Part shown: positions 1,787-36,828 of the stretch, in pieces | Layout: every line of letters begins with the position of its first letter | Position numbering within the stretch: the stretch's first letter is position 1 | Origin: Nanoarchaeota archaeon SCGC AAA011-G17 | Lineage (GTDB): Archaea; Nanobdellota; Nanobdellia; SCGC-AAA011-G17 | NCBI GenBank assembly: GCA_000402515.1 | Contig: AQRL01000038.1 | Coordinates: forward strand, 37,344 to 101,343 | Reading direction: 5' to 3' | DNA: 64,000 nucleotides | Notes under the pieces: model-generated | What the model saw: the letters and a program-made list of their open reading frames with translations, nothing else | Told to the model about the DNA's origin: nothing | Database searches by the model: none | Position numbers and translations under genes: made by a program

Positions 1787-2152
1787 TTGAAAAAAAAGGA
1801 CTTTTTTCTCAGTTTGATGAAGATATTGCCTAGTTTAAGGGAAAAGAAAAGGTATTTGGTATTTGAAGTACTGAGTGAGGATAAGGTTAAAGACTTTAGA
1901 ATCATAAGAAGCGAAATACTAAATAATGTACATAGCTTTTTAGGGCAAGTAGATGCTGGAAAGGCAGGGGCAATGTTTTTGAAGGATTTATGGTTTAAGG
2001 ACAAACAAAAGGGAATATTAAGCATAAATAATAAATATGTGGATAAGGTTAAGATGTCTTTAATGCTAATAAAAAAATTAGAAGGAAAAGATGTTATTTT
2101 GAACAATATTGGATGCAGCGGAATACTAAATAAAGCTAAAAAATATATCTAA
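1787..2152 (+). CDS. rnp2: RNase P protein component Pop5 (Rpp14 family)
   Basis: Translation 'LREKKRYLVFEV' matches the Pop5 N-terminal signature. Length is ~120 aa. It sits first in the conserved Pop5-PsmA-exosome superoperon. Confidence 0.7.
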   Translation: MKKKDFFLSLMKILPSLREKKRYLVFEVLSEDKVKDFRIIRSEILNNVHSFLGQVDAGKAGAMFLKDLWFKDKQKGILSINNKYVDKVKMSLMLIKKLEGKDVILNNIGCSGILNKAKKYI

Positions 2153-2170
2153 AAAGGAGGATCATAAAAA

Positions 2171-2890
2171 ATGGAACAAACAATGTCACATCAGATGATG
2201 GGGTATGACAGGACTAGCACAATGTTCAGTCCTGATGGAAGATTATTACAGGTAGAGTATGCTAAAAAAACAGTAAGACAGGGAAGCACAGCAATAGGGA
2301 TAGTATGCAAAGACGGTGTATTATTAGTTACAGACAGAAGAGTAGCTGACAAATTAATTGTAGCAGAATCTGTTGAGAAATTATTTAAGGTAGATGATCA
2401 TATCGGCGCTGCTGTTTCTGGATTTATTAGTGATGGCAGAGTGCTAATTGAAAGAGCAAGAGTAAAGGCACAGCAATACAGAGTTACTTATGACGAGCCT
2501 ATAGATGTTCAGGAATTAGTCAAGGAAATTTCTGATGTCAAGCAGGCCTTCAGCCAGTATGGCGGTGCAAGACCTTTTGGTGTTTCAATATTATTTGCAG
2601 GAATTGATGAGAGCGGAATCAAGTTATTTGCTACAGAGCCAAGCGGGATTTTTTTCCAGTACAGAGCAACTGCCATTGGTGAAGGGGAAGTGGAGATTAC
2701 TGCTTTCTTGAATGAGGAATACAAGGATGGAATGAGTTTGGATGACGGATTGAAATTGGCTATTAAGGCTTTCAAAAAGATTCTTGGAAAAGATTTTGAT
2801 ATAAACAGGATGACTGGCGGGTATATTGATAATAATGAGAAAAAATTCACCAAATATGACATAAACCAAATCAGAAAAATAGCAAAGTAA
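2171..2890 (+). CDS. psmA: Proteasome alpha subunit
   Basis: 'GYDRTSTMFSPDGRLLQVEYAKK' is the classic alpha-subunit N-terminus. A strong SD (aaaggagga) precedes the ATG. Confidence 0.9.
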   Translation: MEQTMSHQMMGYDRTSTMFSPDGRLLQVEYAKKTVRQGSTAIGIVCKDGVLLVTDRRVADKLIVAESVEKLFKVDDHIGAAVSGFISDGRVLIERARVKAQQYRVTYDEPIDVQELVKEISDVKQAFSQYGGARPFGVSILFAGIDESGIKLFATEPSGIFFQYRATAIGEGEVEITAFLNEEYKDGMSLDDGLKLAIKAFKKILGKDFDINRMTGGYIDNNEKKFTKYDINQIRKIAK

Positions 2891-2891
2891 A

Positions 2892-3578
2892 ATGGATTTT
2901 AATAAAGCAGTTGTTGCAAAACTGAAGAAGGATGGAGAAAATTTTGAGATCTTAGTAAATTGCGACAAGGCAATTGATTTCAAGAAAGGAAAAGGAACTA
3001 TTCAGGATGCTGTTGTTGCCGAATATATCTACAAGGACAGCAAGAAGGGAGATAAGGCTTCTGAGCACGAAATAGAGAAATATTTTGAAACAACTGACTT
3101 TTATGAGGTTGCTGAAATAATTCTTAAACATGGAGAGATCCAATTAACTGCAGAATACAGGGGCAAGCTTAGAGAAGAAAAGAGGAAAAAGATTCTTGAA
3201 TTAATACATAGAAATGCTATTGATTCTCAGACAGGCTTTCCACATCCGGTAATTAGAATAGAAAAGGCTATGGAAGAGGCTAAAGTAAAGATTGATGAAT
3301 TCAAAAATGCCGAGGAGCAGATTGAGGATATTTTAGAAAAAATAAAAGAGATTATTCCAATCAAATTTGCAGTAAAAGAATTTTGGGTCAGAATACCTGC
3401 ACAGTTTGGGGGACAGGCTTATGCCATTTTCAAGAAATTCGGAAAGATTTTGAAAGAGGATTGGGGTGATGGCTTGGCTATCACTATTGAAATTCCCGGT
3501 GGAATGACAGAGGAATTTTTCAGCAAACTAAACAGCTTAACTCATGGTGATGTAGAAAGCAAGGAGATCAAGAAATGA
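2892..3578 (+). CDS. sdo1: Ribosome maturation protein SBDS/Sdo1
   Basis: 'VVAKLKKDGENFEILVNCDKAIDF' matches the SBDS N-terminal domain. The canonical position after psmA supports the call. Confidence 0.8.
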   Translation: MDFNKAVVAKLKKDGENFEILVNCDKAIDFKKGKGTIQDAVVAEYIYKDSKKGDKASEHEIEKYFETTDFYEVAEIILKHGEIQLTAEYRGKLREEKRKKILELIHRNAIDSQTGFPHPVIRIEKAMEEAKVKIDEFKNAEEQIEDILEKIKEIIPIKFAVKEFWVRIPAQFGGQAYAIFKKFGKILKEDWGDGLAITIEIPGGMTEEFFSKLNSLTHGDVESKEIKK

Positions 3579-4096
3579 ATGGAATATTTGTAAGACCAGA
3601 AACATTAGAAGAGGCATTAATGAATGAGGGATTATATTCAGGGATATTACAAGGGCTGGTTGATTCCTTTAGCGAGGATAGGAATCAGTTTGTTTTTGAT
3701 GAAATAATGGAATCTAACAAATCTGAAGAGGAAAAACTAAATATATTATCAAAAAAAGAATTTATTTTTAAAAAAGATTATAGTTTATTAAAAAGAAGAA
3801 TTAGTTATGAAGAGACAATACCTAGAAAGATATTGGTTAGTTATCCAAAGAGGTTTCTTGATAAACACTTTGGTCCAATAATTGATAAACACTTTGGTCC
3901 ACTAACATTACAGCAAGCAGTATATGCCTTTTGTAATGATAGGAATGTTTTAAGAGAATATGAAAGAGAGAAGGTAGTTGGTTCTTATTGTACTGAACAT
4001 GAGCTTTTGGAATTAGTAAAAAATAAAATGAATCCGTATGAGTATTTACTTGTTTTAAAGAATATAGGGAGGAAAAATGGGAAAAATATTAATTGA
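3575..4096 (+). CDS. Hypothetical protein embedded between SBDS and Rrp4 (overlaps both neighbours)
   Basis: It overlaps sdo1 by 4 nt and rrp4 by 20 nt. I recognise no family. It contains the internal tandem repeat DKHFGPII/DKHFGPLT. Confidence 0.4.
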   Translation: MNGIFVRPETLEEALMNEGLYSGILQGLVDSFSEDRNQFVFDEIMESNKSEEEKLNILSKKEFIFKKDYSLLKRRISYEETIPRKILVSYPKRFLDKHFGPIIDKHFGPLTLQQAVYAFCNDRNVLREYEREKVVGSYCTEHELLELVKNKMNPYEYLLVLKNIGRKNGKNIN

Positions 4097-4793
4097 GGAT
4101 AAAAGTATTGCAGTTCCTGGTGAAATATTAGCAGAGGGAATGGATTTTCTGCCTGCTGGCGGGGTATTCAGAGAGAATGACAAGATTATAGCTTCACAGA
4201 TTGGAATTGTTAATATTGATAATAGATTAGTTAAATTAATACCTTTGAACGGGCGTTACAGCCCTAAGAAGAGTGATATGGTTATTGGGGATGTTGTTAA
4301 TATAACTTTCAGCGGCTGGGTTATTGATATAGGATGCACAAATTTTGCAGTATTGCCAATAAGAGATGCAACCAGTGATTTTATTGATAAGGGTGAGGAT
4401 CTTAGCAGATATTATGGATTTAAGGACATTGTAGTTGCCAAGATATCCAATGTAAGCAAAACAAATCTTATTGACCTGACAATGAAGGGCCCCGGGCTTA
4501 TGAAAATTAAGGGGGGAATGCTGATTGATGTTACTCCTTCAAGAGTTCCAAGAATAATTGGAAAACAGGGAAGCATGATTTCTCTGCTGAAAGAGAGAAC
4601 AGGGTGCAAAATAATTGTCGGCCAAAATGGCAAGGTTTGGATCAAGGGAGAAAATTTTGAGAGTGAAAAGAAGGCAATTGATGCTATCAGGATGATTAAT
4701 AATCTGGCGCATACTACCGGACTTACTGATAAAATTTCTGAATTTTTGGGAGGAAGTGAAAATGTACAAAAGAAAGAGCAGGAAACTGGATGA
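4077..4793 (+). CDS. rrp4: Exosome complex RNA-binding protein Rrp4 (S1+KH)
   Basis: S1-like region plus KH motif 'IIGKQGSMISLLKERTGCKIIVGQNG'. The operon context supports the call. Confidence 0.85.
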   Translation: MGKILIEDKSIAVPGEILAEGMDFLPAGGVFRENDKIIASQIGIVNIDNRLVKLIPLNGRYSPKKSDMVIGDVVNITFSGWVIDIGCTNFAVLPIRDATSDFIDKGEDLSRYYGFKDIVVAKISNVSKTNLIDLTMKGPGLMKIKGGMLIDVTPSRVPRIIGKQGSMISLLKERTGCKIIVGQNGKVWIKGENFESEKKAIDAIRMINNLAHTTGLTDKISEFLGGSENVQKKEQETG

Positions 4794-5463
4794 GCCAAGG
4801 GAGATGGAGGCTAAGGTCGGAATTATAAAGAGAGCTGACGGCAGTGCGATGTTTAAGATAGGAAACACAATTGCTATGGCTGCTGTTTACGGCCCCAGGA
4901 ATTTATATCCTAAATTTATGCAAAATCCTGAAAAGGGAATTTTACGAGTTAATTATAATATGTTTTCTTTTTCAGTCAGCGAAAGGATAAGACCCGGACC
5001 AAGCAGAAGAAGCAAAGAAATCAGTTTAGTCAGCGAGAATGCTTTATTGTCCTGCCTGAACTTAGAGGAATTTCCGAATTCAGTTATAGATGTTTATATT
5101 GAAATCTTGCAGGCTGATGCCGGCACGAGATGTGCGGGTATTTGTGCTGCTTCAATGGCTCTTGCTGATGCAGGCATACCAATGAGAGATTTGGTCAGCG
5201 CTATCAGTGTCGGCAAAGTTGGGGATGCTATTGTTGTTGACCTGGATAAAGAGGAAGAGGATTATGAAGGAGGCAGTACGGACATGCCTATTGCAATGAT
5301 GCCAAGAAATGGAAAAATATCTCTGCTACAAATGGATGGAAACATGAGCAAGGAAGATATAAAGAAGGCTTTGGAGCTTGGAAGAAATACCTGTAATAAA
5401 ATTTATGAGCTGCAGAAAAGAACCTTGAAAGAGAAGTATATGGTGGAAGTTGAAAATGAATAA
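4756..5463 (+). CDS. rrp41: Exosome complex exonuclease Rrp41 (RNase PH-like)
   Basis: RNase PH domain: 'RADGSAMFKIGNTIAMAAVYGPR' and 'DAGTRCAGICAASMALADAGIPMRD'. The true start may lie downstream of 4756. Confidence 0.85.
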   Translation: MKMYKRKSRKLDEPREMEAKVGIIKRADGSAMFKIGNTIAMAAVYGPRNLYPKFMQNPEKGILRVNYNMFSFSVSERIRPGPSRRSKEISLVSENALLSCLNLEEFPNSVIDVYIEILQADAGTRCAGICAASMALADAGIPMRDLVSAISVGKVGDAIVVDLDKEEEDYEGGSTDMPIAMMPRNGKISLLQMDGNMSKEDIKKALELGRNTCNKIYELQKRTLKEKYMVEVENE

Positions 5464-6223
5464 TGTCAGCAAAGAGTATCTTCTTAGCCTATTACAGAGC
5501 GGAAGGAGATTAGATGGAAGAAAATTAAATGAATACAGAGATATTAAAATTGAATTAAATGTCAGCAAGAATGCAGAGGGCAGTGCAAGGGTTAAGTTGG
5601 GGAATAGTGAGGTTATAGTTGGTGTTAAGCTAGAGGTTGGAACACCTTTTCCTGATATGCCTGATGAGGGGAGCATTATTGTTACTGCTGAATTATTGCC
5701 TTTCTCAAATCCTGAGTTTGAATCAGGACCACCAAATTCACAGAGTATTGAATTGGCAAGGGTTGTTGACAGGGGAATCAGGGAGAGCAAGGCGCTTGAT
5801 TTCAAAAAATTGTGCATTGTAGAGGGAGAGAAGGTCTGGCTTGTACTAATTGATATTTATACTATTAATGATGAAGGGAATTTACAGGATGCTGCTGCTC
5901 TTGCTGCAATGGCTGCTTTAATGCATGCAAAGATTCCAAAGTATGATGGAAACAAGGTTGATTATCATGAGCATAGTGGAAATCTTCCATTAACAAGAAA
6001 ACCTCTTGAGTGCACTGTAATGAAGATAGGAGAGCATTTTATAGTTGATCCTGTTAAGGAAGAGGAGGCTTTTGTTGATGCCAGATTAACTGTTGCGGTA
6101 ATAGAGGACGGGAATGTCTGTGCAATGCAGAAGGGCGGAGAGAAAGCCTTAAGTATTGAAGATGCAGAAAAAATGATTGAAATTGCTATTGAAAAGACAA
6201 ACGAGATGAGGAAGAAACTATGA
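5450..6223 (+). CDS. rrp42: Exosome complex component Rrp42 (inactive RNase PH-like)
   Basis: 'LDGRKLNEYRDIKIELNVSKNAEGSARVKLGNSEVIVGVK' has the RNase PH fold. It directly follows rrp41. Confidence 0.85.
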   Translation: MKMNNVSKEYLLSLLQSGRRLDGRKLNEYRDIKIELNVSKNAEGSARVKLGNSEVIVGVKLEVGTPFPDMPDEGSIIVTAELLPFSNPEFESGPPNSQSIELARVVDRGIRESKALDFKKLCIVEGEKVWLVLIDIYTINDEGNLQDAAALAAMAALMHAKIPKYDGNKVDYHEHSGNLPLTRKPLECTVMKIGEHFIVDPVKEEEAFVDARLTVAVIEDGNVCAMQKGGEKALSIEDAEKMIEIAIEKTNEMRKKL

Positions 6224-6465
6224 GCTTTGGAACAGATAAATATGAAAGATATGAAGATTGTTCTAGACGTTGTGGTATACCTTTTCCGGAAAGTAGACAA
6301 ACACAACTTAGGAATATACCTATAGGTGAGTCATTTGTAAAGGATGGTAAGTTATACTACAACAATGGAGATGGTACAGCTGAACCAGCAATAGGTCCTA
6401 GAGTTAATTGTGGTGATGATACTTCAGAAAATTTTTCATTAGACACAATAGTAAAAAGAAGGTGA
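6220..6465 (+). CDS. Hypothetical small protein, translationally coupled to rrp42
   Basis: 4-nt overlap with rrp42. No zinc-ribbon typical of L37ae, which normally occupies this slot. Confidence 0.35.
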   Translation: MSFGTDKYERYEDCSRRCGIPFPESRQTQLRNIPIGESFVKDGKLYYNNGDGTAEPAIGPRVNCGDDTSENFSLDTIVKRR

Positions 6466-6477
6466 GCGGGGGAGAAA

Positions 6478-6699
6478 ATGAATGAAACTATTGAAAAGTG
6501 TTTAGAAGATGCTCAAACAGACAGAAAAATGGCAGAAAAAGAGTTTAGGGATACGTCTGATGGTAATTATAAAGGGGATATAGGTACTGAATTAAAAATG
6601 CATAATGCCTTAAATGGTATTTATTATATGTTGGGTGCTTTATACCATCAGCAAGAAGCAATTATTGCTCAAAATGAGGAAAGAAGTGGAAAAAAATGA
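6478..6699 (+). CDS. Hypothetical small protein, translationally coupled to rpoK
   Basis: RBS gggggag upstream. The stop overlaps the rpoK start. Confidence 0.35.
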
Positions 6700-6908
6700 A
6701 TTATACAAAATATGAAAAGGCAAGGATAATCGGGGCAAGGGCTTTGCAGATTTCAATGGGCGCTCCTTTGTTACTGAAATTAAAGAAAGAAGACTTTGAA
6801 AAAATAAATTACAGGCCTGTAGAGATTGCAAAGATGGAGTTTGAAAAGGGGATAATTCCAATTACGGTAAGGAGACCTATGCCTAACAAAGTAGCTGGAA
6901 AAGAATAA
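6696..6908 (+). CDS. rpoK: DNA-directed RNA polymerase subunit K (Rpb6 homolog)
   Basis: '[23 protein letters not shown]' is the RpoK/Rpb6 signature. Confidence 0.8.
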
Positions 6909-6944
6909 TAAAATTTATAAGGCTGACTTCTTTTTCTTTTAGTT

Positions 6945-8129
6945 ATGAAGATTAAAGGCATTAAAGCGCGAAAGATATTAAATTCTAAGGGTGAATTAAC
7001 TATTGAGATAGAGGTTGACGGCTTTAGGGCTTCTATCGGCAATGGAACAAGTGTCGGAAAATTTGAGGTTGTTGCACTGCCTCCTGATTTAGATAAACTA
7101 GTTGAATTGGTTAATCACAAATTGAACAAAGAGCTTGGAGGCTTGTCTATTAATTCTTTTGATGACCTTGATAAGATTGAAAGGGCAATAAAGACAATAG
7201 ACGCAAGCAGTAATTTCAAGGAAATAGGGGGAAATATTCTTGTTAATTTAGAGCTTGCTTTGCTAAAGGCTGCGAGTGAGAATAATGTGTGGAAGTTTTT
7301 AGATCCTAAGGTTAAAAAGATGCCAATACCAATTGGGAATATTGTTGGAGGGGGAAAGCATTCTGGAGCAAACTGCCCGGATATCCAGGAATTTTTAATT
7401 ATACCAAAAACTAAGGATATTTTTGAGGCGGTATTTGTAAATGCCAAATTTCATGAATTAATAAAAGATGATATAATCAAGAGAGACAAGAATTTTAATT
7501 TTGGCAGGAATATTGAGGGTGCATGGTGCCCTAACCTGAATAATTATGAAGTGCTTGACATGCTGAACAAATTCAGAGAGAGAATTGAAAAGGAGTTCAA
7601 GGTTAAAGTAAGTCTTGGAATTGATTTAGCTGCCTCTGGATTATGGAACGGGAGGAAGTACCAGTACAGGAATTATTCAAGGTTCAGGCAGAAGAGAGTT
7701 TTATCCAGAGAAGACCAGATTGGTTTTGTTAAGAAGTTAATAGCTAATTATGATTTGAAATATGTTGAAGACCCATTACAAGAGGAGGATATTGAAGGGT
7801 TTAAGGAATTAAAAGGAGATTGTATGATTGTTGGTGATGATTTGATTGCTACAAACTTAGACAGAATAAGACTGGCGCAAGAGGCTATCAATGGGGTAAT
7901 TATAAAACCAAACCAAATTGGAAGCCTTTTGAAAGCAAAGGCGGTAGTTGACTTTGCTAAGAGCAAGAAAATGAAAATAATTGTAAGCCATAGAAGCGGC
8001 GAGACAGAGGATAATGTTCTTGCTCATTTAGCTGTCGGCTGGGAGGCTGATTATATCAAGACAGGGATTGTTGGGGGAGAGAGGACAAGCAAGCTGAATG
8101 AGTTGTTGAGGATTAGCGAGAACTTGTAG
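6945..8129 (+). CDS. eno: Enolase (divergent)
   Basis: Exact enolase motifs 'IIKPNQIGSL' and 'SHRSGETED'. The canonical rpoK-eno-S2 neighbourhood supports the call. Confidence 0.85.
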   Translation: MKIKGIKARKILNSKGELTIEIEVDGFRASIGNGTSVGKFEVVALPPDLDKLVELVNHKLNKELGGLSINSFDDLDKIERAIKTIDASSNFKEIGGNILVNLELALLKAASENNVWKFLDPKVKKMPIPIGNIVGGGKHSGANCPDIQEFLIIPKTKDIFEAVFVNAKFHELIKDDIIKRDKNFNFGRNIEGAWCPNLNNYEVLDMLNKFRERIEKEFKVKVSLGIDLAASGLWNGRKYQYRNYSRFRQKRVLSREDQIGFVKKLIANYDLKYVEDPLQEEDIEGFKELKGDCMIVGDDLIATNLDRIRLAQEAINGVIIKPNQIGSLLKAKAVVDFAKSKKMKIIVSHRSGETEDNVLAHLAVGWEADYIKTGIVGGERTSKLNELLRISENL

Positions 8130-8183
8130 AAAAGTATATAAATAAATAATCTATATTAAATAATATATAAAGGAGGTGTTTGA

Positions 8184-8849
8184 ATGAATTTTATTGATAC
8201 TGGGAGTGCAATTCTTAATCCGTTTCAAAGCATCTGGATTAGTTTTGTGGGGATATTACCCTCATTAATTGCTGCCCTGCTTTTGATTATACTTGGTTAT
8301 TTATTGGGGACTGTTTTGGGGCATATTCTAAAATTAGCATTAGAGAAGATTGGCGTTGAGAAGAAATTACAGAAAATAGAGCTGACAAGAAATATCGGCA
8401 AGATGCATTTCTCTGCAATATGCGGTGAATTATTGAAATGGTATGTATTAATTATATTTTTGCAGGCAGGCGTTGATTTATTAAATCTTGGAACTTTATC
8501 TGATGTCCTGACAACCTTTGTCAACTGGATGCCACAGCTTATTGTTGGTGTAATCGTAATATTATTCGGAATGCTAATTGCACATTATGTTGAATTGAAA
8601 ATCAGAGAGAACAGCGATGTTAAGGGAGTAAGACTAAGTGCAGTTGCCCTGAAATGGGTAATTGTATTTGCGGTTATATTGACTGCATTAAAACAAATCG
8701 GTCTTGATATCAGCTTGTTTGAGAATGCGTTCTATCTAGTCTTTGGTGCAATAGCAATAGGTCTTGCTCTGGCTCTTGGAATAGGATTGGGATTAGGAAT
8801 GAGAAAGGGTGGAGAGAAATTTATAGACAAGATAATGAATAACTTTTAA
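8184..8849 (+). CDS. Multi-pass membrane protein (unknown function)
   Basis: Several hydrophobic helices. SD aaaggagg upstream. The stop lies inside the 35-bp direct repeat. Confidence 0.5.
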   Translation: MNFIDTGSAILNPFQSIWISFVGILPSLIAALLLIILGYLLGTVLGHILKLALEKIGVEKKLQKIELTRNIGKMHFSAICGELLKWYVLIIFLQAGVDLLNLGTLSDVLTTFVNWMPQLIVGVIVILFGMLIAHYVELKIRENSDVKGVRLSAVALKWVIVFAVILTALKQIGLDISLFENAFYLVFGAIAIGLALALGIGLGLGMRKGGEKFIDKIMNNF

Positions 8850-8871
8850 TTCTTTTTTTTCTTTTATTTTT
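8837..8871. repeat. 35-bp perfect direct repeat, copy A (copy B at 10199..10233); spans the stops of the converging genes and a T-tract
   Basis: gaataacttttaattcttttttttcttttattttt is identical at both sites. Confidence 0.8.
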
Positions 8872-9619
8872 TTGATATTTTCCATAAAGTATAAAAGTAT
8901 TGTTTGAATCCTTCTGCAAGTGTTTTGCTTCTAATAAAAATTGTGATTTCTTTTTCTTCTTTTTTTAGAATTGGGATGATTGTGATGTCTTTGTAAATAT
9001 TTATAGGAATTGCGCTTGTTTGATCTAAGAATCTTTCTTCGTTATATTTGTTTATTTTTTGGTGGTGCTCTTTTACACCCCTTAAGTTTTTTGTAAAAAT
9101 AACCTTTGTTCTTATCTTTGCGTTTATTCTTTTTTTATGGAAGTTTAGGAAAAAATTTAATTGCTGTTTATTTAGCGTATCGTCAACACCAAATACAAGA
9201 AATTCTTCTTCTTGATTGAATTCATTTTCTACTATCTGGAAGGCATTTTTTAAACCCCGAAATCCTTCAAAGATTTCTGTTCTTTGTTTTTGTATATTTG
9301 AAGATTGAATATTCATGAGAGTTGGTAATAATTCTGAAATTTCTTTTTCCTGTTCTTTTATTTTTTCTTGTTTTTTATGGAGTAAATCCAATAAAAAATT
9401 TGGCGGAGAAGCATTGTAATGTCTAACTTTATTTTTAAAAGAGATTGAAACTAATCCTTTTTGAACTAGTTTATCAAGAATGTCATATATTTTTGATTTT
9501 GTCACCCCGGATTCCTTAACTATACCCCCTATAGATGATTGCCCTATTTTTAATAAAGCAAGATATGCTTTTACTTCTCCATTTGTTAAACCTATTTCAT
9601 ATAGAATCTCTTTGTTCAT
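8864..9619 (-). CDS. TrmB-family transcriptional regulator (paralog 1 of 3)
   Basis: N-terminal wHTH 'YEIGLTNGEVKAYLALLKIGQSSIGGIVKESGVTKSKIYDILDKLVQKGLV' is TrmB-like. It has a C-terminal sensor-like domain. Paralogs at 15977 and 19211 share the 'LWKISKK' C-terminus. Confidence 0.7.
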   Translation of the reverse strand: MNKEILYEIGLTNGEVKAYLALLKIGQSSIGGIVKESGVTKSKIYDILDKLVQKGLVSISFKNKVRHYNASPPNFLLDLLHKKQEKIKEQEKEISELLPTLMNIQSSNIQKQRTEIFEGFRGLKNAFQIVENEFNQEEEFLVFGVDDTLNKQQLNFFLNFHKKRINAKIRTKVIFTKNLRGVKEHHQKINKYNEERFLDQTSAIPINIYKDITIIPILKKEEKEITIFIRSKTLAEGFKQYFYTLWKISKK

Positions 9620-9739: not shown

Positions 9740-10204
9740 GTGAAAATAATAAAGAATATAGCAAAGGGAGTATTAATGGGTAGTTTAGGTGCAATTATCT
9801 TTGGGTATTTATCATATATGCCACCTAATTCAAGCAAACAGTTAGAACAACAAAGGATAGAAAAAATTAAATCTGTAATAGAACCATATCATGGAAAAAT
9901 GCTTGAAGTAACAGTTACCGGACTTGATTTTGGTCGTGGTCGTTATGGTGGTCATGGTCTAGGGATTAGATTCTATGATGTTGATGGTGATGGTAAAACC
10001 GTAGAACAGTATGTTAGATCTATTGAAACAAATACTCTACCCCCTTACTGTTATAGGTATGTTGAAACAGATTTAATAAGACAAGGTCAAAAACCAGAGT
10101 TTAACCCACAAAATATTAATAATGTAAGAAGAGAGATGACAAAAACAGAAGCAGCAATTTTGGATAAAGAGTATCAAGGTCTTTTAGGCAAGTTTAAAGA
10201 ATAA
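9740..10204 (+). CDS. Hypothetical protein with N-terminal TM anchor
   Basis: ORF with a hydrophobic N-terminus. The stop lies inside repeat copy B. Confidence 0.4.
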   Translation: MKIIKNIAKGVLMGSLGAIIFGYLSYMPPNSSKQLEQQRIEKIKSVIEPYHGKMLEVTVTGLDFGRGRYGGHGLGIRFYDVDGDGKTVEQYVRSIETNTLPPYCYRYVETDLIRQGQKPEFNPQNINNVRREMTKTEAAILDKEYQGLLGKFKE

Positions 10205-10276: not shown

Positions 10277-10873
10277 ATGGCTACAGAAAATCAAGAAACA
10301 TTATTAGTTCCCTTGGATAATTACCTAAAGGCAGGGTTACATATTGGGACAAAGTTCAGGACCAAATATATGGCTCCTTTTATTTACAAGGTTAGGAATG
10401 ACGGTTTAAGCGTATTAAATGTACAAGAGGTAGATAACAGGATTAATATTGCTTCTAAGTTTTTAAGCCAGTATGCTCCTGAGGACATTTTAGTTGTCTG
10501 CAGGAGAGAGAATGGGTGGCAGGCTGTAAGGCTTTTTTCCAAGGCTACAGGGGTTAGGGTTTTTGCTGGGAGATATACACCAGGGGCACTGACTAATGCA
10601 AACCTGAAGGAATTTTTTGAGATTAAATTATTGATAGTAACTGATCCATGGCCTGACAAGAATATTGTTGATGATGCCTTAACATTGGGAATTCCGGTAA
10701 TTGCCCTATGCGACACAAACAATACAAGCAACGGCATTGACTTTGTTGTTCCATGCAATAACAAGGGAAAGAAGAGCCTGGGATTGATATTCTGGATATT
10801 TGCTAATGAGTATTTGAAGAACAGAAAACTAGGAATATTAAAGGCAACTATAGAAGATTTCTGCGCTGATTAA
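10277..10873 (+). CDS. rps2: 30S ribosomal protein S2 (uS2)
   Basis: 'LLVPLDNYLKAGLHIGTKFRTKYMAPFIYKVRNDGLSVLNV' and a C-terminal 'VIALCDTNN' region are typical of archaeal S2. The position after eno supports the call. Confidence 0.85.
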   Translation: MATENQETLLVPLDNYLKAGLHIGTKFRTKYMAPFIYKVRNDGLSVLNVQEVDNRINIASKFLSQYAPEDILVVCRRENGWQAVRLFSKATGVRVFAGRYTPGALTNANLKEFFEIKLLIVTDPWPDKNIVDDALTLGIPVIALCDTNNTSNGIDFVVPCNNKGKKSLGLIFWIFANEYLKNRKLGILKATIEDFCAD

Positions 10874-11559: not shown

Positions 11560-14500
11560 TTAGATTATATGCTCTTTTCCTATCTTTGCCATAACTAAGT
11601 TATGCATCCTTTGTATGAATTCCTGTTTGTCTTCTATTTTATAGATATCTGTATGCGCCTGTATTATTAAGTTGAATGCAAATGGAGAGGGTATTGTTGT
11701 ATTTATTTCTTTTATTTTTATTTTTTCATCTTCAATCTGTTTCAGAACTAATTCTGCATTATTAATGTCCATCAGGTCTTCAAAAACCTCCCTCTTTGTT
11801 TCTTTTATTAGTGAGAAATTTGGAGAGATTCTTTTTAATGCGTTCATCAAAATCATTGAAGAGACCTGCTGCCTTCCAACTCTTTTTTTATAACCCTTAT
11901 ACTCCCTTAAAATCATTAAAGAGCGAGTTGCTACATGCCTAAACCTTCTTGAAAGAACCTGTGTTTTATCTATTGCCAGTTCCATTATTTTCTGCAGTTC
12001 AGATGATTTTATTTTTGAAAGGGCCTGTGTTGCCTGAATATTTGTTTCAGAAGAAAGATAAAAACCATTGTCGTTTATTCCTATTTCAACGTCTTTGTGC
12101 TGAAACCTTGAGATTGCATAGGCTAATGCCCTTGATAATACATCATTTACCCTCCTTCCGTATAATGAATGGAAGATTACGTATTTTTTTTTGTCTCCTG
12201 CATAGCAGTATTCAATCACGATTTTTTTATCATTTGGAATCTCTTTTTTATAGAGGAACTGCTCCCTAAAATATTCATAAATTGCATTTGCTGCATTTTC
12301 ATCTATGTAGAGATAATCGAGAATGAACTTAATAATCTCCTCTTTATTTCTTTTTGCCAGCATTTTTTCTTCAACTAACCTCCTGAATTTTCCTATTTCT
12401 AATGCCAAATCAAAGGATAAAGGAAGCATTTCTGAGAACCAGGAGGGGATTGTTGGAAGTTTGCTGACTGTTGCCTGGACTTGGGCGGTCATTCCACGAC
12501 TGAATAGGAAAATGTATCTATTTCCTCCCAATATGAAAACATCTCCTCTTTTTAGCTTCTCAAGAAATAATTCATCTATATGGCCTACAGTCTGCTCTCC
12601 TATTTTTACTGAGATAAAGGATTCATCTGGAATTGTTCCTATATTGGTCATGTAAATCATTCTTGCTAGTTTTCCCTTTTTTCCAATCATGCCTGTTTCT
12701 TTGTCATACCAGATTTTTGCATAGATATGGCGGTCTTCTAGGCTTGAATATTCCCCTGATAGATATTCTATTATTTCCCTGAAGTCTGTCATTGACAAAT
12801 CTTTATATGGGTAAGCCTGCCTTACTAGATTGTATAACTCTTTATAGCTAATCTGATTTGAGATTGCTATTCCGTAGATCTGCTGGGCAAGAACATCGAG
12901 GCAGTTTTTTGGAATGTGAATCTTGTCTATTTTTTTTTCTATTGCTGATTTTAAAAGTACAGAGCACTCTACTAAATCATCCCTGTCTAATACTATAATC
13001 CTTCCTTTTGATGTTTCATGCAGCTTGTGCCCTGACCTGCCAATTCTCTGAATCGCTCGAGCTATACTTTTAGGACTTCCCAATAGAATTACTAAATCAA
13101 TATAACCAATATCCAAACCTAACTCTAATGATGTACTACAAACAACTACCTTTAATTTTCCTTCCCTTAGTTTTTGCTCTATGTTAAAGCGGTGCTCTTT
13201 TGACAGAGAGCCGTGATGGGCTCCAATATTTTCTGTATAATTCTGGGGGAATTTATCTTTAAGATGATAGACTACTCTTTCTGTTGCTGAACGTGTGTTT
13301 GTGAATATCAGGGTTGTTTTATGTTGCTGTATCAAGGAATCAATTAAGTTATACATCTCGGTATGGAGCTTTTCTGGTTCAATATTAATTATGTCGGGCA
13401 CTGGAGAAAGAACTTTTAGATCCATTTTTTTGATAAACTGAGAATCAACTATTTTACATGGTCGTGTTTTTCCATTTTCCAGTCCTACTAAGAATTGCGC
13501 TATTTCTTCTAATGGCGAAATTGTAGCTGAAAGGCCTATTCTTGTTAGTGGTTCTTTTGTTAGGGCTTGTAATCTTTCTAGAGATAGTGATAAATGAGTG
13601 CCTCGTTTCGAATCTGCTAAGGCATGAATCTCGTCTATTACCAGATATCTTGTACTTTTTAGATGTTCTATGAATTTTGTTGAGGTCAAAACAATTGCCA
13701 ATGATTCCGGAGTACAAAGAAGAATATGGGGAGCTTTGTTGGACATCTTTTGCTTTTCAGATGCTGTTGTATCTCCTGTTCTTACTGCTATTCTTATCCC
13801 AAATTTCTTTTCTGCTAATTTTTCTATTTCTTCCAGTGGTGTTTTTAGATTAACTTCTATATCCCTTGTTAATGCCTTAAGCGGAGAAACGTAAACAGCG
13901 TATGTTTTGTCTTCCAACATATTATTTTCTGAGAGATTTATTAATTCATTTAGGATTGAGAGAAATGCTGTTAAGGTATTATGCAGGTATATTCCCCCAT
14001 ACCCTCCAACGAAATTATGTATATCTGGAACTGTTAAATCAATAACTTTTCCATTATATTCAAACTCCTTAATTTCTTTTACTTTAAGCCAACAAATATT
14101 TTTATTTAACAACTCGTCAATTTCTTTAAATAAACCATTTAAATTTTTATTATTAAACTTTATAATTTTGTTTTTTAAATTTGTTAAAGCAATTTCAGTT
14201 ATATAACCTGTTCTTCTTACTACTTCATAAATAGTTCCAAATTCTTTATTAAATTCTATATCATTTTTACATAGTTTTGACAAGTTTCTAATCTTTTTGT
14301 AATCAAATTTATGTTTTAAAACACATTCTCCGTTAGATTTTTTTAGTATTTGTTTTTCTAATAAAAAATGGTTTGGATGATCTATATCTACTTCTTCTAA
14401 GAATAATTTAATATTTTTTATTTTTCTAATAATCAAGGAATAATATTCTCTTCTAGTTTTATTTATTGTATTTGAAGCATACCTTATTGGCTTGTTTATG

Positions 14501-15858
14501 GAGGAAAATATACCCAATGATAATAGTAAATAATTGATAATTTCAATCTTATTTTTATTAGATTGATGTAAGATAATCTCTCCACCTTCTTTTGAAATTG
14601 TAGATTCCAAAGAAAAAAATACATTTAGAAAATTAGTTTTTATATCTTTCTTTGCATCAAGAAGCCAGTTTGGTAAAGAAACATATCTTCCTCTTCCGAT
14701 TTTTATTTCTAATAAATCTCTTAAAAAATAACAAAATAATGTAAAATCTACAGAATAATCTTTTTCATTTTTTTGTTTGAACTTCACATCAAATAGTTTT
14801 TTGCTATTCTTAAAAAATTCTTTTAACAAATATTTTCTATTCTTTTGTGAAACAGCTAAGTGAGTTCCCCTTTCATAATCCCCAATAAACCCCTCTGCAA
14901 GAACAAATGATAACCACCTTGCTAACTTTATATCTACTTTTTTAGGATATCTAAAAGAGAAAGTATTATTCCCCTTGTTTTTAACAATTATCCTGTTTTT
15001 TTCAAATTTAACTTTTTTACATTCTTTTTTAAATAAATTAAATAATAATTCTTTTTTATAATTTGTTTGCTTGTTGAATAAATTATATACCTGGCTTATT
15101 GATAATCCTATTTTATTCCCTAAGTCAGCAAAGGATGTTTTTTGTAAGGTCTTAATTTCATACAGTTCTTTGATAGTTAAATTATTAAAATTGTTAAAAT
15201 TATTTGTTTTCTTTTTTAATCTTAAATAATCTTCATAAATAATGGATATTCCAGCTTTATCTTTTAAATTTTGTATTGCTAGCTTGTAATCCAGAAAAAT
15301 CTCTCTCTCAGGCAATTTAATTGTTTTTGGTACAGCTATTTTATCTTCTTTTTTGATATCTTTTGCAGGAACCCATCCTTTTCCTTCAACGAGTAATGGA
15401 TGATCTTTGCTGAGTTTTATTTCCCGACCATATTCTGTCCTTATTTTCAATAATGTATCTTTGGTGTCTTCAAAATAAACTAATGCCTTTGTCTTTTTAA
15501 TTTGATTTTCGTCCAATGAAAAACTTTTTAGAGATGATAGACTGTATAACTCTCCTGTTTTATCAATATTTGTTATTTTTTTACCTTTCTTTTTTGCTAT
15601 TTCCATTAATTCTTCTGCCTTTAGCAATTTTGTACGACCATCTAACTCTAATAAAATATTTGTATCTGGAGTTATGCATTTTGTTGCTCCTGTTGGTGCT
15701 GATATTAGAATGTTATTTTCATTATGAATTTCCATTACGCCATATAGCTGTGGGAGTGAAAACTCCTTAAACTTTGTAAAGAACCACTGCTTTACTATTG
15801 GGTTTAGGATTTTCTCTATCTGCTCTTTTGTGTGAGGTTTTTCCAAATAGGTTATCAT
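11560..15858 (-). CDS. lhr: Lhr-type ATP-dependent helicase (DEAH/DExH box) interrupted by an in-frame intein
   Basis: The extein reads 'SAPTGATK|TLTAFLSIL', 'YVSPLKALTRD', 'RTGDT', 'LLCTPESL', 'LVIDEIHAL'. These are Lhr-core motifs. The extein is ~865 aa. Confidence 0.8.
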   Translation of the reverse strand: MITYLEKPHTKEQIEKILNPIVKQWFFTKFKEFSLPQLYGVMEIHNENNILISAPTGATKCITPDTNILLELDGRTKLLKAEELMEIAKKKGKKITNIDKTGELYSLSSLKSFSLDENQIKKTKALVYFEDTKDTLLKIRTEYGREIKLSKDHPLLVEGKGWVPAKDIKKEDKIAVPKTIKLPEREIFLDYKLAIQNLKDKAGISIIYEDYLRLKKKTNNFNNFNNLTIKELYEIKTLQKTSFADLGNKIGLSISQVYNLFNKQTNYKKELLFNLFKKECKKVKFEKNRIIVKNKGNNTFSFRYPKKVDIKLARWLSFVLAEGFIGDYERGTHLAVSQKNRKYLLKEFFKNSKKLFDVKFKQKNEKDYSVDFTLFCYFLRDLLEIKIGRGRYVSLPNWLLDAKKDIKTNFLNVFFSLESTISKEGGEIILHQSNKNKIEIINYLLLSLGIFSSINKPIRYASNTINKTRREYYSLIIRKIKNIKLFLEEVDIDHPNHFLLEKQILKKSNGECVLKHKFDYKKIRNLSKLCKNDIEFNKEFGTIYEVVRRTGYITEIALTNLKNKIIKFNNKNLNGLFKEIDELLNKNICWLKVKEIKEFEYNGKVIDLTVPDIHNFVGGYGGIYLHNTLTAFLSILNELINLSENNMLEDKTYAVYVSPLKALTRDIEVNLKTPLEEIEKLAEKKFGIRIAVRTGDTTASEKQKMSNKAPHILLCTPESLAIVLTSTKFIEHLKSTRYLVIDEIHALADSKRGTHLSLSLERLQALTKEPLTRIGLSATISPLEEIAQFLVGLENGKTRPCKIVDSQFIKKMDLKVLSPVPDIINIEPEKLHTEMYNLIDSLIQQHKTTLIFTNTRSATERVVYHLKDKFPQNYTENIGAHHGSLSKEHRFNIEQKLREGKLKVVVCSTSLELGLDIGYIDLVILLGSPKSIARAIQRIGRSGHKLHETSKGRIIVLDRDDLVECSVLLKSAIEKKIDKIHIPKNCLDVLAQQIYGIAISNQISYKELYNLVRQAYPYKDLSMTDFREIIEYLSGEYSSLEDRHIYAKIWYDKETGMIGKKGKLARMIYMTNIGTIPDESFISVKIGEQTVGHIDELFLEKLKRGDVFILGGNRYIFLFSRGMTAQVQATVSKLPTIPSWFSEMLPLSFDLALEIGKFRRLVEEKMLAKRNKEEIIKFILDYLYIDENAANAIYEYFREQFLYKKEIPNDKKIVIEYCYAGDKKKYVIFHSLYGRRVNDVLSRALAYAISRFQHKDVEIGINDNGFYLSSETNIQATQALSKIKSSELQKIMELAIDKTQVLSRRFRHVATRSLMILREYKGYKKRVGRQQVSSMILMNALKRISPNFSLIKETKREVFEDLMDINNAELVLKQIEDEKIKIKEINTTIPSPFAFNLIIQAHTDIYKIEDKQEFIQRMHNLVMAKIGKEHII
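13978..15678 (-). mobile_element. Intein (567 aa) with LAGLIDADG homing-endonuclease domain, inserted between Lys and Thr of the Lhr Walker-A motif
   Basis: It starts with Cys ('CITPDTNILLELDG') and ends 'VGGYGGIYLHN', followed by Thr+1. DOD motifs are 'WLSFVLAEGFIGD' and 'FLNVFFSLEST'. Confidence 0.8.
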
Positions 15859-36715: not shown

Positions 36716-36828
36716 TGGGAACGTGGGGATTTGAACCCCAATCAACTGGTGTCTTCTAAATCACAGCCGAAGCTCATCACTCCAAACACTGGAGCCAGTT
36801 ACACTAAACCAGGTTGTGCTACGCTCCC
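36716..36828 (-). tRNA. tRNA-Trp (anticodon CCA) containing a 38-nt intron at the canonical 37/38 position
   Basis: Reverse complement folds as a cloverleaf. Acceptor GGGAGCG/CGTTCCC. D-arm GCAC..GTGT with GG in the loop. Anticodon stem ACTGG/CCAGT. Loop CUCCAG|A. T-arm TGGGG-TTCAAAT-CCCCA. Discriminator A73. No encoded CCA. Confidence 0.7.
36751..36788 (-). other. tRNA intron (bulge-helix-bulge type)
   Basis: The intron TGTTTGGAGTGATGAGCTTCGGCTGTGATTTAGAAGAC pairs TGGAG with the anticodon-loop CUCCA. It contains a box-C-like GTGATGA. Confidence 0.6.

Follow-up and report, generated by a model that had tools for sequence, protein, structure and literature searches.

Orphan open reading frames at two junctions of an RNA-exosome operon in a Woesearchaeota clade

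Three ORFs without family assignment, ORF173, ORF81 and ORF73, were examined in the RNA-exosome operon of a member of the Woesearchaeota, a tiny archaeon from groundwater. We consider it probable (about 0.7) that they are genuine, young, fast-evolving orphan genes of one narrow Woesearchaeota clade, lodged in two junction slots, slot 1 between sdo1 and rrp4 and slot 2 between rrp42 and rpoK. On the best reading they would be accessory genes, for the most part dispensable, whose expression depends on translational coupling. L37ae and RpoP, which the first-pass annotation had expected in slot 2, are absent from that slot throughout the lineage.

Operon layout and junction anatomy

Positions refer to the window, the 64-kb stretch of DNA that was analysed; all features from sdo1 to rpoK lie on the + strand, and L numbers denote the loci compared. 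Pfam and NCBIfam confirmed the neighbours as Rpp14, PsmA, SBDS/Sdo1, Rrp4, Rrp41, Rrp42, RpoK and enolase, with the order rpp14-psmA-sdo1-rrp4-rrp41-rrp42 intact. Slot 1 is anchored upstream by sdo1, encoding the SBDS ribosome assembly factor (2892..3578; TIGR00291, E=3e-67; Pfam SBDS_N, SBDS_domain_II and SBDS_C), and downstream by the exosome cap gene rrp4 (4077..4793; NF003181, E=5e-71). The exosome ring genes rrp41 (4756..5463; TIGR02065, E=2e-88) and rrp42 (5450..6223; NF003282, E=8e-95) follow, the latter being the upstream anchor of slot 2, whose downstream anchor is rpoK (RNA polymerase subunit K/Rpb6; 6696..6908; NF002208, E=7e-26). Beyond it lie eno (6945-8129), mscS (8184-8849; MS_channel_1st_1 match on the L001 orthologue) and, farther downstream, rps2 (10277-10873). 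The ORF listing agrees exactly with the earlier description of a 173-aa ORF (ORF173, 3575..4096) between sdo1 and rrp4 that overlaps both, and of coupled 81- and 73-aa ORFs (ORF81, 6220..6465; ORF73, 6478..6699) between rrp42 and rpoK. The latter two are separated by a 12-nt spacer (6466..6477) and make up a 476-bp cassette (6224..6699).

At its 5' end ORF173 shares 4 nt (ATGA) with the sdo1 stop, and at its 3' end 20 nt with the start of rrp4 (4077); the latter overlap contains the SD-like motif of rrp4, GGGAGGA. Similarly, ORF81 starts in a 4-nt overlap with the rrp42 stop and ORF73 stops in a 4-nt overlap with the rpoK start (ATGA, 6696). Each of the three ORFs is preceded by an SD-like motif, which in the ORF81-ORF73 spacer is GGGGGAG (6468-6474), with AGGAGAG at the equivalent place in L002. 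Two copies of an initiation motif flank the cassette: the left copy, GAGGAAGAAACTATGA (6208..6223), serves ORF81 in the window and directly serves rpoK in the cassette-free L001 and L091, and the imperfect right copy, GTGGAAAAAAATGA (6686..6699), takes over for rpoK in the presence of the cassette. A scan with a sigma-70-type consensus, which is bacterial and does not cover archaeal promoters, found sites no more often than expected by chance. The ORFs, having no evident promoter of their own, would be expressed by riding on the operon, probably through translational coupling with their neighbours. Because each ORF carries an SD-like motif and an overlapping start and stop (ATGA or 20 nt), translation of the essential rrp4 or rpoK would remain coupled with an occupied slot as well as with an empty one.

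Coding signal, constraint and the slot 1 family

The in-frame codon-usage log-likelihood of the three ORFs is 0.31-0.45 bits per codon, compared with 0.23-0.45 in the confirmed neighbours, and the score is clearly negative in both shifted coding-strand frames. With substitutions placed at random up to the divergence observed, the chance of the frame staying open is p=6.5e-4 for ORF173, 0.033 for ORF81 and 0.044 for ORF73. Indels within the ORFs between relatives are in frame, and homologues stand at matching positions in independent assemblies. These data suggest that the three ORFs are more than chance open frames, and they look like genuine genes. The concern that they might be spurious, unconserved in relatives and lacking an RBS, is made less likely by the homologues in the same positions and the SD-like motifs upstream; native codon usage, those motifs and the retained frames bear out the lineage-specific part of the earlier reading, namely genuine-looking genes of one lineage embedded in the operon.

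Overall dN/dS of the ORFs is 0.55-0.62 compared with 0.04-0.14 in the flanks, at similar dS, and substitutions are evenly distributed among codon positions. Along the ORFs dN/dS is uneven, falling to 0.14 in the ORF81 core (versus 1.2 for aa 2-35) and 0.23 in ORF173 aa 61-90 with values of about 1 elsewhere, and these cores are defined by small counts (7 synonymous versus 3 non-synonymous changes in that of ORF81). Purifying selection thus appears strong locally and constraint weak overall.

ORF173 is predicted to be all-alpha-helical and consists of an N module (3575..3832, aa 1-86), a hypervariable linker (3833..3901) and a C module (3890..4096, aa 106-173). The N module, whose best-modelled helices span aa 38-76 and whose most constrained segment is aa 61-90, is found by itself in L094, L095, L098 and L099, as a gene of 92-99 aa, and the C module in L091-L093, L096 and L097, as one of 83-86 aa. 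An exact tandem duplication of 18 nt, GATAAACACTTTGGTCCA, lies in the linker (3860-3877 and 3884-3901); the L001 version is 45 nt shorter, in frame. Between the window and L091 the C module has a dN of 0.189 compared with 0.004-0.009 in the flanks, at equal dS, and the second half of the module diverges strongly even from a strain that is ~96% identical. In the recovered loci the N+C, N-only and C-only forms always lie between sdo1 and rrp4; since these loci were mostly found via ORF173 itself, its apparent presence in every clade member is subject to ascertainment bias. Searching 1.84 billion representative proteins exhaustively with profiles yielded only about 9 true relatives of ORF173. The slot 1 family is thus composed of two independent, weakly constrained helical modules occurring together or alone, and slot 1 is more persistent than slot 2.

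The N-module motif EKLnxLxxxGfIxxxeYxLLkr resembles by eye the SHOCT domain (PF09851 / PF20612), a short helical hairpin, and it lies within the best-modelled part of ORF173. A SHOCT_2 match at the motif residues of the L088 homologue stays below threshold and is not significant (E=0.12); the window ORF173 gives none in Pfam, and we take the likeness as a lead only.

Slot 2 contents and the absence of L37ae and RpoP

ORF81 has a variable N-terminal part with a short conserved motif, MSF..D..RR.G[IL]P.P, followed by a conserved beta-hairpin-like core (aa 36-63, nt 6325-6408); its AF2 model is of low confidence (pLDDT 53). It is 63% identical to its homologues in L002 and L086. ORF73, which is acidic (pI 5.1; dN/dS 0.58), is 61% identical to 65-aa homologues in the same two loci, with in-frame indels; from our own reading of the sequence, with no model behind it, we expect a helical hairpin. 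Outside the window genome, the two ORFs turned up in just one population, from Hainich groundwater.

Slot 2 differs between close strains. L001 is ~98% nucleotide-identical to the window, yet it lacks exactly the 476-bp cassette, which is also precisely absent in L091, L103 and L104. The same junctions enclose a different, unrelated cassette in L101, L102 and L105, 881 nt long with three ORFs (67+85+128 aa), next to an rpoK whose product is identical to that of the window; a 26-aa N-terminal motif is common to ORF81 and the first of these ORFs in L101 (hhalign P=2e-4). L098 and L015 carry unrelated ORFs of 62 and 61 aa. The flanking proteins are 97-100% identical in strains without the cassette or with a replacement, and one aquifer well, Hainich H51, holds three states: empty (L104), 81+65 aa (L002/L086) and 67+85+128 aa (L101/L102/L105). 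Looking for the ORFs in the same position in relatives, as had been proposed, therefore gave a divided answer, with homologues in independent assemblies but the cassette absent or swapped in close strains. Slot 2 would then be a flexible-genome islet, with strains gaining, losing or exchanging its contents. The most likely routes are homologous recombination in the conserved flanking sequence or deletion between the two copies of the initiation motif. Since its contents vary between strains, ORF81+ORF73 would be an accessory cassette that the cell can do without, not a core component of exosome or ribosome, a view drawn from metagenome contigs rather than isolates.

Profile searches of the three ORFs returned no Pfam or NCBIfam match at E<=1 and nothing significant in PHROGs, PADLOC or PDB sequences, so that no family could be assigned. 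As the first-pass annotation had noted for the small ORFs, none of the three has a C4 zinc ribbon; ORF81 and ORF73 have no conserved CxxC pairs, and the ORF81 cysteines are not kept in its homologue. Nowhere in the 64 kb of the window is there a small ORF with a zinc ribbon or a match to the L37ae or RpoP profiles. That ORF81 and ORF73 represent L37ae and RpoP in extremely diverged form, or else some other small protein of the superoperon (Pcc1, for instance), is hardly credible. Only their location and comparable size fit this idea, against which stand the missing cysteine pattern and family matches, an hhalign probability of <=1.4% against L37ae, RpoP and Pcc1 profiles (54, 28 and 43 sequences) and the empty slot in sister strains, and it is refuted as far as sequence methods reach.

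The archaeal exosome superoperon rpp14-psmA-sdo1-rrp4-rrp41-rrp42-rpl37ae-rpoP-... was reportedly described by Koonin, Wolf and Aravind in 2001. The window keeps its rpp14-to-rrp42 order unbroken, and the expectation of L37ae and RpoP after rrp42 holds for most non-Woese loci fetched, including Aenigmatarchaeota, often with Pcc1. In contrast, the Woesearchaeota/Nanoarchaeota-type block runs into rpoK-eno-(mscS)-rps2, and the window clade adds orphan ORFs at two junctions. Rrp42 is followed by rpoK in L006, L009, L010, L012, L015, L018, L022, L035, L037, L088, L090 and L098 as well as in the cassette-free close relatives L001, L091, L103 and L104, the two genes abutting or overlapping, or having no more between them than a short spacer or a single small ORF of unrelated sequence; in L013 eno takes the place of rpoK. 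L37ae or RpoP follows rrp42 in 0 of the Woesearchaeota/Nanoarchaeota-type loci reaching past rrp42. The two genes are indeed missing from slot and window, but the suggestion that an insertion displaced them fails: because rrp42 adjoins rpoK (eno once) with or without extra ORFs, the absence from the slot is, as judged from gene order, a lineage-wide operon rearrangement. The exosome block would have been joined directly to the rpoK-eno-rps2 block in this lineage, and L37ae/RpoP would therefore never have occupied this slot there.

Alternative readings and known systems

The ORFs could be lineage-specific exosome or ribosome-biogenesis partners, co-translated with Sdo1/Rrp4 (ORF173) or Rrp42/RpoK (ORF81, ORF73) because they assemble together. 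Their strict co-location and overlapping frames with exosome genes are in line with this, the persistence of that co-location also fits a real functional link, ORF173-family genes lie between sdo1 and rrp4 in all recovered loci across ~27% nucleotide divergence, and the operon of L013, from another Woesearchaeota, holds an inserted bona fide RNA-processing gene (FAU-1/RNase E-G-like). However, the cassette is missing or replaced where exosome proteins are 97-100% identical, ORF173 exists in N-only and C-only forms, non-synonymous change runs at 5-50 times the rate seen in the supposed partners, neither a fold nor a family known for RNA binding or a link to the exosome turned up (Pfam, NCBIfam, PDB sequences), and the wider Woesearchaeota lack the ORFs. 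We therefore regard partnership as unlikely overall. For ORF173 the idea is weak, and an exosome/SBDS-linked role is rather unlikely; for the cassette such a role is quite improbable and a core exosome role unlikely.

Equally doubtful as partnership is that slot 2 houses selfish or conflict cassettes (toxin-antitoxin, polymorphic toxin/immunity, defence/anti-defence) exchanged under frequency-dependent selection, with ORF81, whose N-terminal motif is conserved and whose C-terminus varies, as effector and ORF73 as neutraliser. This would explain a coupled pair of small genes, fast sequence evolution, at least three allelic states in one genus, all three from Hainich H51, the N-terminal motif shared by the first ORFs of two unrelated cassettes, and the glycine-rich membrane protein encoded by the alternative cassette. 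It agrees poorly with the lack of toxin, antitoxin or defence matches in Pfam or PADLOC and of relatives in phage/viral collections, with the chance-level promoter scan (bacterial consensus only), with a cassette never seen in another genomic context, and with dS equal to the flanks, which suggests vertical descent over recent transfer. Less probable still is non-functional filler: an insert in a tightly coupled operon has to remain open if ribosomes are to get to the ATGA restart site downstream, and selection would then see the frame and not the protein. Uniform codon-position substitution with dN/dS ~0.6 is what a nearly neutral spacer ORF would give, dN/dS reaches ~1.2 in ORF81 aa 2-35, in-frame indels and whole-module deletions are frequent, deletions run exactly from ATGA to ATGA, and the C-terminal residues that are conserved fall on the SD and start of the next gene. 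What speaks against filler is protein-level constraint in the ORF81 core and ORF173 aa 61-90, ORF173 modules recognisable at 40% identity across ~27% nucleotide divergence, fully native codon usage, and the SD-like motif in the 12-nt spacer, which points to independent initiation of ORF73. We favour young accessory genes, and our best guess is that they act as small protein-binding adaptors or strain-specific conflict/interaction factors.

Among known systems, DPANN clusters of small unannotated proteins, compared by description only, are similar in that the proteins are small, unannotated, of one lineage and set among housekeeping genes of a DPANN archaeon, and alpha-helical in the case of ORF173. 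Those clusters are common to tens of DPANN genomes, whereas the window families are confined to one genus-level clade. Type II toxin-antitoxin and polymorphic toxin-immunity cassettes likewise comprise two small coupled genes, patchy in strains, with a shared N-terminal motif and a variable remainder; ORF81/ORF73 differ from them in having no homology to known toxin, antitoxin or immunity families (Pfam, PADLOC), no evident autonomous promoter and no occurrence outside slot 2. Flexible genomic islets, strain-variable cassettes exchanged via conserved flanks, are a general concept of population genomics. Slot 2 islets differ in measuring only 0.5-0.9 kb, in having no integrase, tRNA or attachment site, and in lying inside an essential, translationally coupled operon, but they resemble them in that, at one exact site between conserved genes, co-occurring strains carry unrelated or no gene content.

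Layout and coding status of the three ORFs

The exosome operon of the window runs on the plus strand from 1787 to 8849 in the order rpp14, psmA, sdo1, ORF173, rrp4, rrp41, rrp42, ORF81, ORF73, rpoK, eno and mscS (the last named from a precomputed Pfam match on the orthologue in L001, a near-identical contig), with rps2 located further downstream. At its two ends ORF173 (3575–4096, +) runs into its neighbours, by 4 nt at the sdo1 stop and by 20 nt at the rrp4 start. ORF81 (6220–6465, +) starts on the ATGA that ends rrp42, ORF73 (6478–6699, +) ends on the ATGA that starts rpoK, and the 12-nt spacer between the two contains the SD-like sequence GGGGGAG. The first-pass annotation described these ORFs correctly. 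None of the three contains a zinc ribbon. Read-through from ORF81 into ORF73 is not conserved because in the Hainich groundwater contig L002 a second in-frame stop follows that of the ORF81 equivalent.

In-frame codon-usage scores for ORF173, ORF81 and ORF73 are 0.39, 0.45 and 0.31 bits per codon, compared with 0.23–0.45 for confirmed neighbours, and the scores are clearly negative in both shifted frames of the coding strand. Each ORF is preceded, as its neighbours are, by an SD-like motif at normal spacing. Homologues of all three were found at the same position in independent assemblies, with identities of 88, 65, 64 and 65% for ORF173 relatives, and of 63% for ORF81 and 61% for ORF73 relatives in the Hainich groundwater contigs L002 and L086.

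Indels within the ORFs are in frame across homologues, and if substitutions fell at random at the divergence seen, the frames would remain open with a probability of 6.5e-4 for ORF173, 0.033 for ORF81 and 0.044 for ORF73. Relative to L002, dN/dS is 0.55 (ORF173), 0.62 (ORF81) and 0.58 (ORF73), as against 0.04–0.14 for sdo1, rrp4, rrp41 and rrp42, while dS is similar (0.40–0.49 in the ORFs, 0.44–0.77 in the flanks). Unlike in the flanks, substitutions in the ORFs are spread evenly over codon positions. Constraint is concentrated locally: dN/dS falls to 0.14 in a core of ORF81 (aa 36–63) compared with ∼1.2 over aa 2–35, and is 0.23 over aa 61–90 of ORF173. The ORFs thus have the codon usage of native genes and a signal for initiation, and they show both conserved frames and purifying selection. 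Judged by these sequence signatures, we conclude that all three are real protein-coding genes under weak overall selection, with small constrained cores and a near-neutral remainder.

Profile searches, which the first-pass annotation had proposed, were run and matched no known family. None of the three ORFs has a Pfam or NCBIfam match at E≤1, PHROGs, PADLOC and PDB sequence profiles returned nothing significant, and family searches with their homologues were likewise negative. One homologue of ORF173 gave a sub-threshold SHOCT match (PF09851 or PF20612; E=0.12, 13 bits where the cut-off is 24) that ORF173 itself does not give. A single-sequence AF2 model of ORF81 reached a pLDDT of 53, too poor for a structure search. 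No paralogues were detected elsewhere in the window or in loci L001–L094, and we found no description of these ORFs in the literature. We rejected a viral link: tblastn against 50,697 phage records gave no match, IMG/VR gave none for ORF173 or ORF73, and the higher-GC phage contig L087 matches only around the seed heptapeptide DGKLYYN, inside a 319-aa ORF adjacent to ORFs that read in translation as portal- and terminase-like. We regard this match as chance, since it scores 32 bits with E=0.018 even in a small local database. In the ORF173 linker, RFLDKH resembles an HEPN R-x4-H motif; this was also rejected because homologues do not conserve it.

Elsewhere in the window, a 1432-aa Lhr-type large helicase (11560–15858, −; DEAD, Helicase_C, WH_Lhr, DEAD_assoc) is interrupted at ∼aa 79–627 by an intein with a LAGLIDADG homing-endonuclease domain. 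Rfam places a tRNA of 113 nt (49 bits) at 36716–36828 (−) that was missed by ARAGORN and probably contains an intron.

L37ae, RpoP and the rrp42–rpoK join

Comparison loci were anchored by an Rrp41 search of GTDB genomes, in which the closest relatives are Woesearchaeota at ≤72% identity. In most loci outside this lineage that extend past rrp42, including those of Thermoplasmatota, Thaumarchaeota, Hadarchaeota and several Aenigmatarchaeota, rrp42 is followed by two small zinc-ribbon ORFs, which were confirmed as L37ae (PF01780) and RpoP (PF03604) in L024 and L017. A local profile detected L37ae in 54 non-Woesearchaeota loci and in 0 loci of the Woesearchaeota type. Among the Woesearchaeota/Nanoarchaeota-type loci reaching past rrp42, the next conserved gene is rpoK (L006, L009, L010, L012, L015, L018, L022, L035, L037, L088, L090 and L098), the exception being L013 with eno in place of rpoK. 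In these loci rrp42 and rpoK either abut or overlap, or have between them no more than a short spacer or a single small ORF of unrelated sequence. Throughout the lineage, therefore, the rpoK-eno-rps2 block is fused to the exosome block.

On this evidence from gene order, the absence of L37ae and RpoP from the junction is older than, and independent of, the extra ORFs. The earlier suggestion that an insertion displaced the canonical genes thus does not hold, because the rrp42–rpoK join is the lineage norm with or without extra ORFs. This removes a false alarm, in that the two genes are not missing through displacement; the join is the normal Woesearchaeota arrangement, a point worth knowing in DPANN genome annotation and wherever the superoperon serves as a synteny marker. 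No L37ae- or RpoP-like ORF occurs within the 64-kb window, itself part of a 116,957-bp contig.

The first-pass annotation had also raised the possibility that ORF81 and ORF73 are themselves highly divergent forms of L37ae or RpoP. ORF81 has three cysteines and ORF73 one, and these are not conserved in homologues. Neither ORF has the L37ae signature of two CxxC pairs or a match to PF01780 in Pfam or NCBIfam searches at E≤1, and hhalign against a 54-sequence L37ae alignment gave probabilities of 1.4% (ORF81) and 0.1% (ORF73). RpoP (Rpb12, PF03604) is a zinc ribbon of ∼45 aa; here too Pfam and NCBIfam gave no match, and hhalign gave ≤0.3% against a 28-sequence RpoP alignment. With no profile similarity and no conserved cysteines, this possibility is refuted within the limits of sequence-based methods. 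The KEOPS subunit Pcc1 (PF09341) is also encoded by a small superoperon gene; none of the three ORFs matches it in Pfam (hhalign probability ≤0.6%), which does recognise it in L054, a thaumarchaeal locus (E=1.6e-11).

Three retrieved contigs are probably mis-binned: L078 and L085, from GTDB bins with the bacterial titles Anaerovoracaceae bacterium and Bacteroides salyersiae, carry a full archaeal exosome-L37ae-RpoP locus of the Methanomassiliicoccales type, and L009, titled Methanosarcinales, has the Woesearchaeota-type gene order.

Strain-level variation at the operon junctions

Contig L001 is ∼98% identical to the window over 8.8 kb, with flanking proteins 98–100% identical, and lacks exactly 476 bp at the rrp42–rpoK junction. 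With breakpoints marked by slashes, L001 reads ...GAGGAAGAAACTATGA/ATTATAC... and the window ...ACTATGA/GCTTTGG...AAAAAATGA/ATTATAC. This comparison shows that the ORF81-ORF73 cassette is bracketed by two imperfect copies of an SD-plus-ATGA initiation motif (6208–6223 and 6686–6699). The rpoK start is a stop/start overlap whether the cassette is present or absent. In the rrp4–rrp42 nucleotide tree the window is joined successively by L001 (2.0%), L091 (4.2%), L002 (10.7%) and L088 (27%), and of these five the window and L002 contain the cassette, which L001, L091 and L088 lack. One gain followed by at least two losses would be the simplest history because cassette dS equals flank dS; alternatively, the empty allele may have spread by recombination.

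An exact look-up of the RpoK protein, which is independent of the cassette, yielded more Hainich contigs. The junction is empty in L103 and L104, and L101, L102 and L105 contain a different 881-nt cassette whose ORFs encode 67, 85 and 128 aa, the second product being Cys-rich and the third glycine-rich and membrane-like. This cassette has the same left and right junctions as that of the window and no nucleotide similarity to it. ORF81 and the 67-aa ORF share only a 26-aa N-terminal motif, MSF..D..RR.G[IL]P.P (hhalign P=2e-4, probability 44%); their remainders and the downstream ORFs are unrelated. In L101 the three-ORF cassette lies between rrp42 and rpoK at 95–986, its 85-aa ORF has a CPDKGC..C..C pattern, and the rpoK product is identical to that of the window. 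Other unrelated ORFs occupy the junction in L098 (62 aa) and L015 (61 aa). Assemblies from well H51 include the empty, the 81+65-aa and the 67+85+128-aa alleles, and each allelic state is backed by at least two independent assemblies. Comparison of the junction contents therefore gives at least three allelic states in one genus, and the best-supported reading of these sequences is that the junction behaves as a miniature flexible-genome islet.

For the gene at the sdo1–rrp4 junction, a profile run exhaustively against 1.84 billion representative proteins recovered only ∼9 true relatives of ORF173; two further matches were repeat-protein artefacts. In every locus with recoverable context, sdo1 and rrp4 flank the gene, which overlaps or abuts each of them. 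ORF173 itself led to most of these loci, so constant presence is an ascertainment-biased impression, and the family is absent from the more distant Woesearchaeota loci found through Rrp41. Full-length forms, with an N module (aa 1–86 in ORF173) and a C module (aa 106–173), occur in the window, L001, L002, L088–L090 and two further relatives (P0004, P0005); in L088–L090 an extra 79-aa ORF precedes the gene. Genes of 83–86 aa comprising only the C module occur in L091–L093, L096 and L097, and genes of 92–99 aa comprising only the N module in L095, L098 and L099, where rrp4 follows directly, and in L094, where the contig ends 32 nt past the gene. The linker between modules is hypervariable, with an exact 18-nt tandem duplication in the window (3860–3877 and 3884–3901) and a version 45 nt shorter in L001. 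In the comparison with L091, which is 96% identical to the window in the flanks, dN of the C module is 0.189 compared with 0.004–0.009 in the flanks at equal dS. We do not claim an internal N/C repeat (hhalign P=0.03) or the 79-aa ORF of L088 as a third module (P=0.007), both matches being weak with probabilities <6%. In L088 psmA is split (4112–5093, 204 + 117 aa) and in the matching L089 it is intact (4374–5093, 239 aa), likely reflecting a frameshift or assembly error.

Inserts occur at other positions and in other lineages. In locus L008 small ORFs of glycine-zipper or membrane type separate sdo1 from rrp4, L088 has a 130-aa ORF between rpoK and eno, and L101 has a 522-aa coiled-coil ORF between eno and mscS (2452–4020), where the window has a short spacer only. 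In L013 (6666–8045) a 459-aa FAU-1/RNase E-G-like gene (RNase_E_G + DUF402) lies between rrp41 and rrp42 and overlaps both; this is a genuine RNA-processing gene that the exosome operon has recruited. The inserts of these several lineages indicate that junctions of this operon commonly accept lineage-specific genes.

The ORFs of L008, which belongs to another Woesearchaeota lineage, measure 60–73 aa and 48 aa (PF13488, E=1e-5) and fill a ∼0.9-kb gap (4376–5060). The interval between mscS and rps2 is another lineage-variable stretch of the fused operon: in the window it holds a TrmB-family regulator on the opposite strand (8864–9619, −) and an unannotated 154-aa ORF (9740–10204, +), and in L098 and L088 rps2 is closer behind mscS. 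Directly upstream of rpp14 (280–1705, +) are two more ORFs without Pfam match, encoding a 322-aa protein with a Lys/Glu-rich tail and a 145-aa Cys-containing protein; this stretch is only 89% identical to L001, compared with ∼98% for the operon.

Candidate functions and comparison with known systems

The best-supported reading is that the three ORFs are young, fast-evolving and apparently largely dispensable orphan genes, which may take advantage of being transcribed, and coupled in translation, with a highly expressed operon. Their location might instead reflect a specific role in exosome function or ribosome biogenesis, as the first-pass annotation proposed. For ORF81 and ORF73 such a role is opposed by strain-level dispensability, as they are absent or replaced where core proteins are 97–100% identical. 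For ORF173 it is possible but weakly supported: the family is missing in other Woesearchaeota and half-gene forms exist. Nor do the ORFs show the co-conservation across the lineage that an exosome accessory subunit, whether Csl4-like, DnaG-like or a new partner, would have. They may also be pure filler whose frames stay open for the sake of coupling alone, a reading that the constrained cores speak against.

The cassette may also have a conflict-type role, as a toxin-antitoxin pair or a polymorphic effector. Like the genes of type II toxin-antitoxin loci, ORF81 and ORF73 are two small, adjacent and apparently co-translated genes; the 12 nt that separate them hold an SD-like motif. Homology gives the role no support: no known toxin or antitoxin fold or family was matched in Pfam, NCBIfam, PADLOC or PDB-sequence searches. 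A promoter scan, limited to a sigma-70-type bacterial consensus for this archaeal host, gave no enrichment. A more elaborate proposal, which we consider a long shot, is that the rrp42–rpoK junction, and perhaps sdo1–rrp4, is a dedicated cassette-exchange hotspot in an essential operon, where strains of the genus would swap small effector/neutraliser cassettes and the conserved ∼26-aa N-terminal motif of the first gene would act as a docking element tethering variable payloads to the exosome or RNA polymerase. If true, it would be a new means by which a DPANN symbiont connects its core RNA machinery directly to regulators or conflict systems that differ from strain to strain.

Returning to the reading as young orphan genes, the strain-resolved data show that fast-turnover orphan genes can settle at the junctions of an operon that is essential and translationally coupled, apparently leaving the coupling intact. 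Such cassette polymorphism within an essential coupled operon is modestly surprising, and provides a small, tractable case for gene birth, retention and loss in streamlined symbiont genomes. Should any of the proteins prove to bind SBDS, RNA polymerase or the exosome, an uncultured phylum would have regulators of RNA metabolism specific to one of its lineages.

Among known systems, polymorphic toxin/immunity loci combine a conserved N-terminal region with a variable C-terminal domain and a variable downstream gene. The N-terminal motif common to ORF81 and the 67-aa ORF, with unrelated sequence after it, may point in this direction; no toxin domain or secretion signal was identified here. Orphan small genes in a housekeeping context have been described in DPANN (PMC6393860). 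The protein families reported here are undescribed; the phenomenon is of a known kind.
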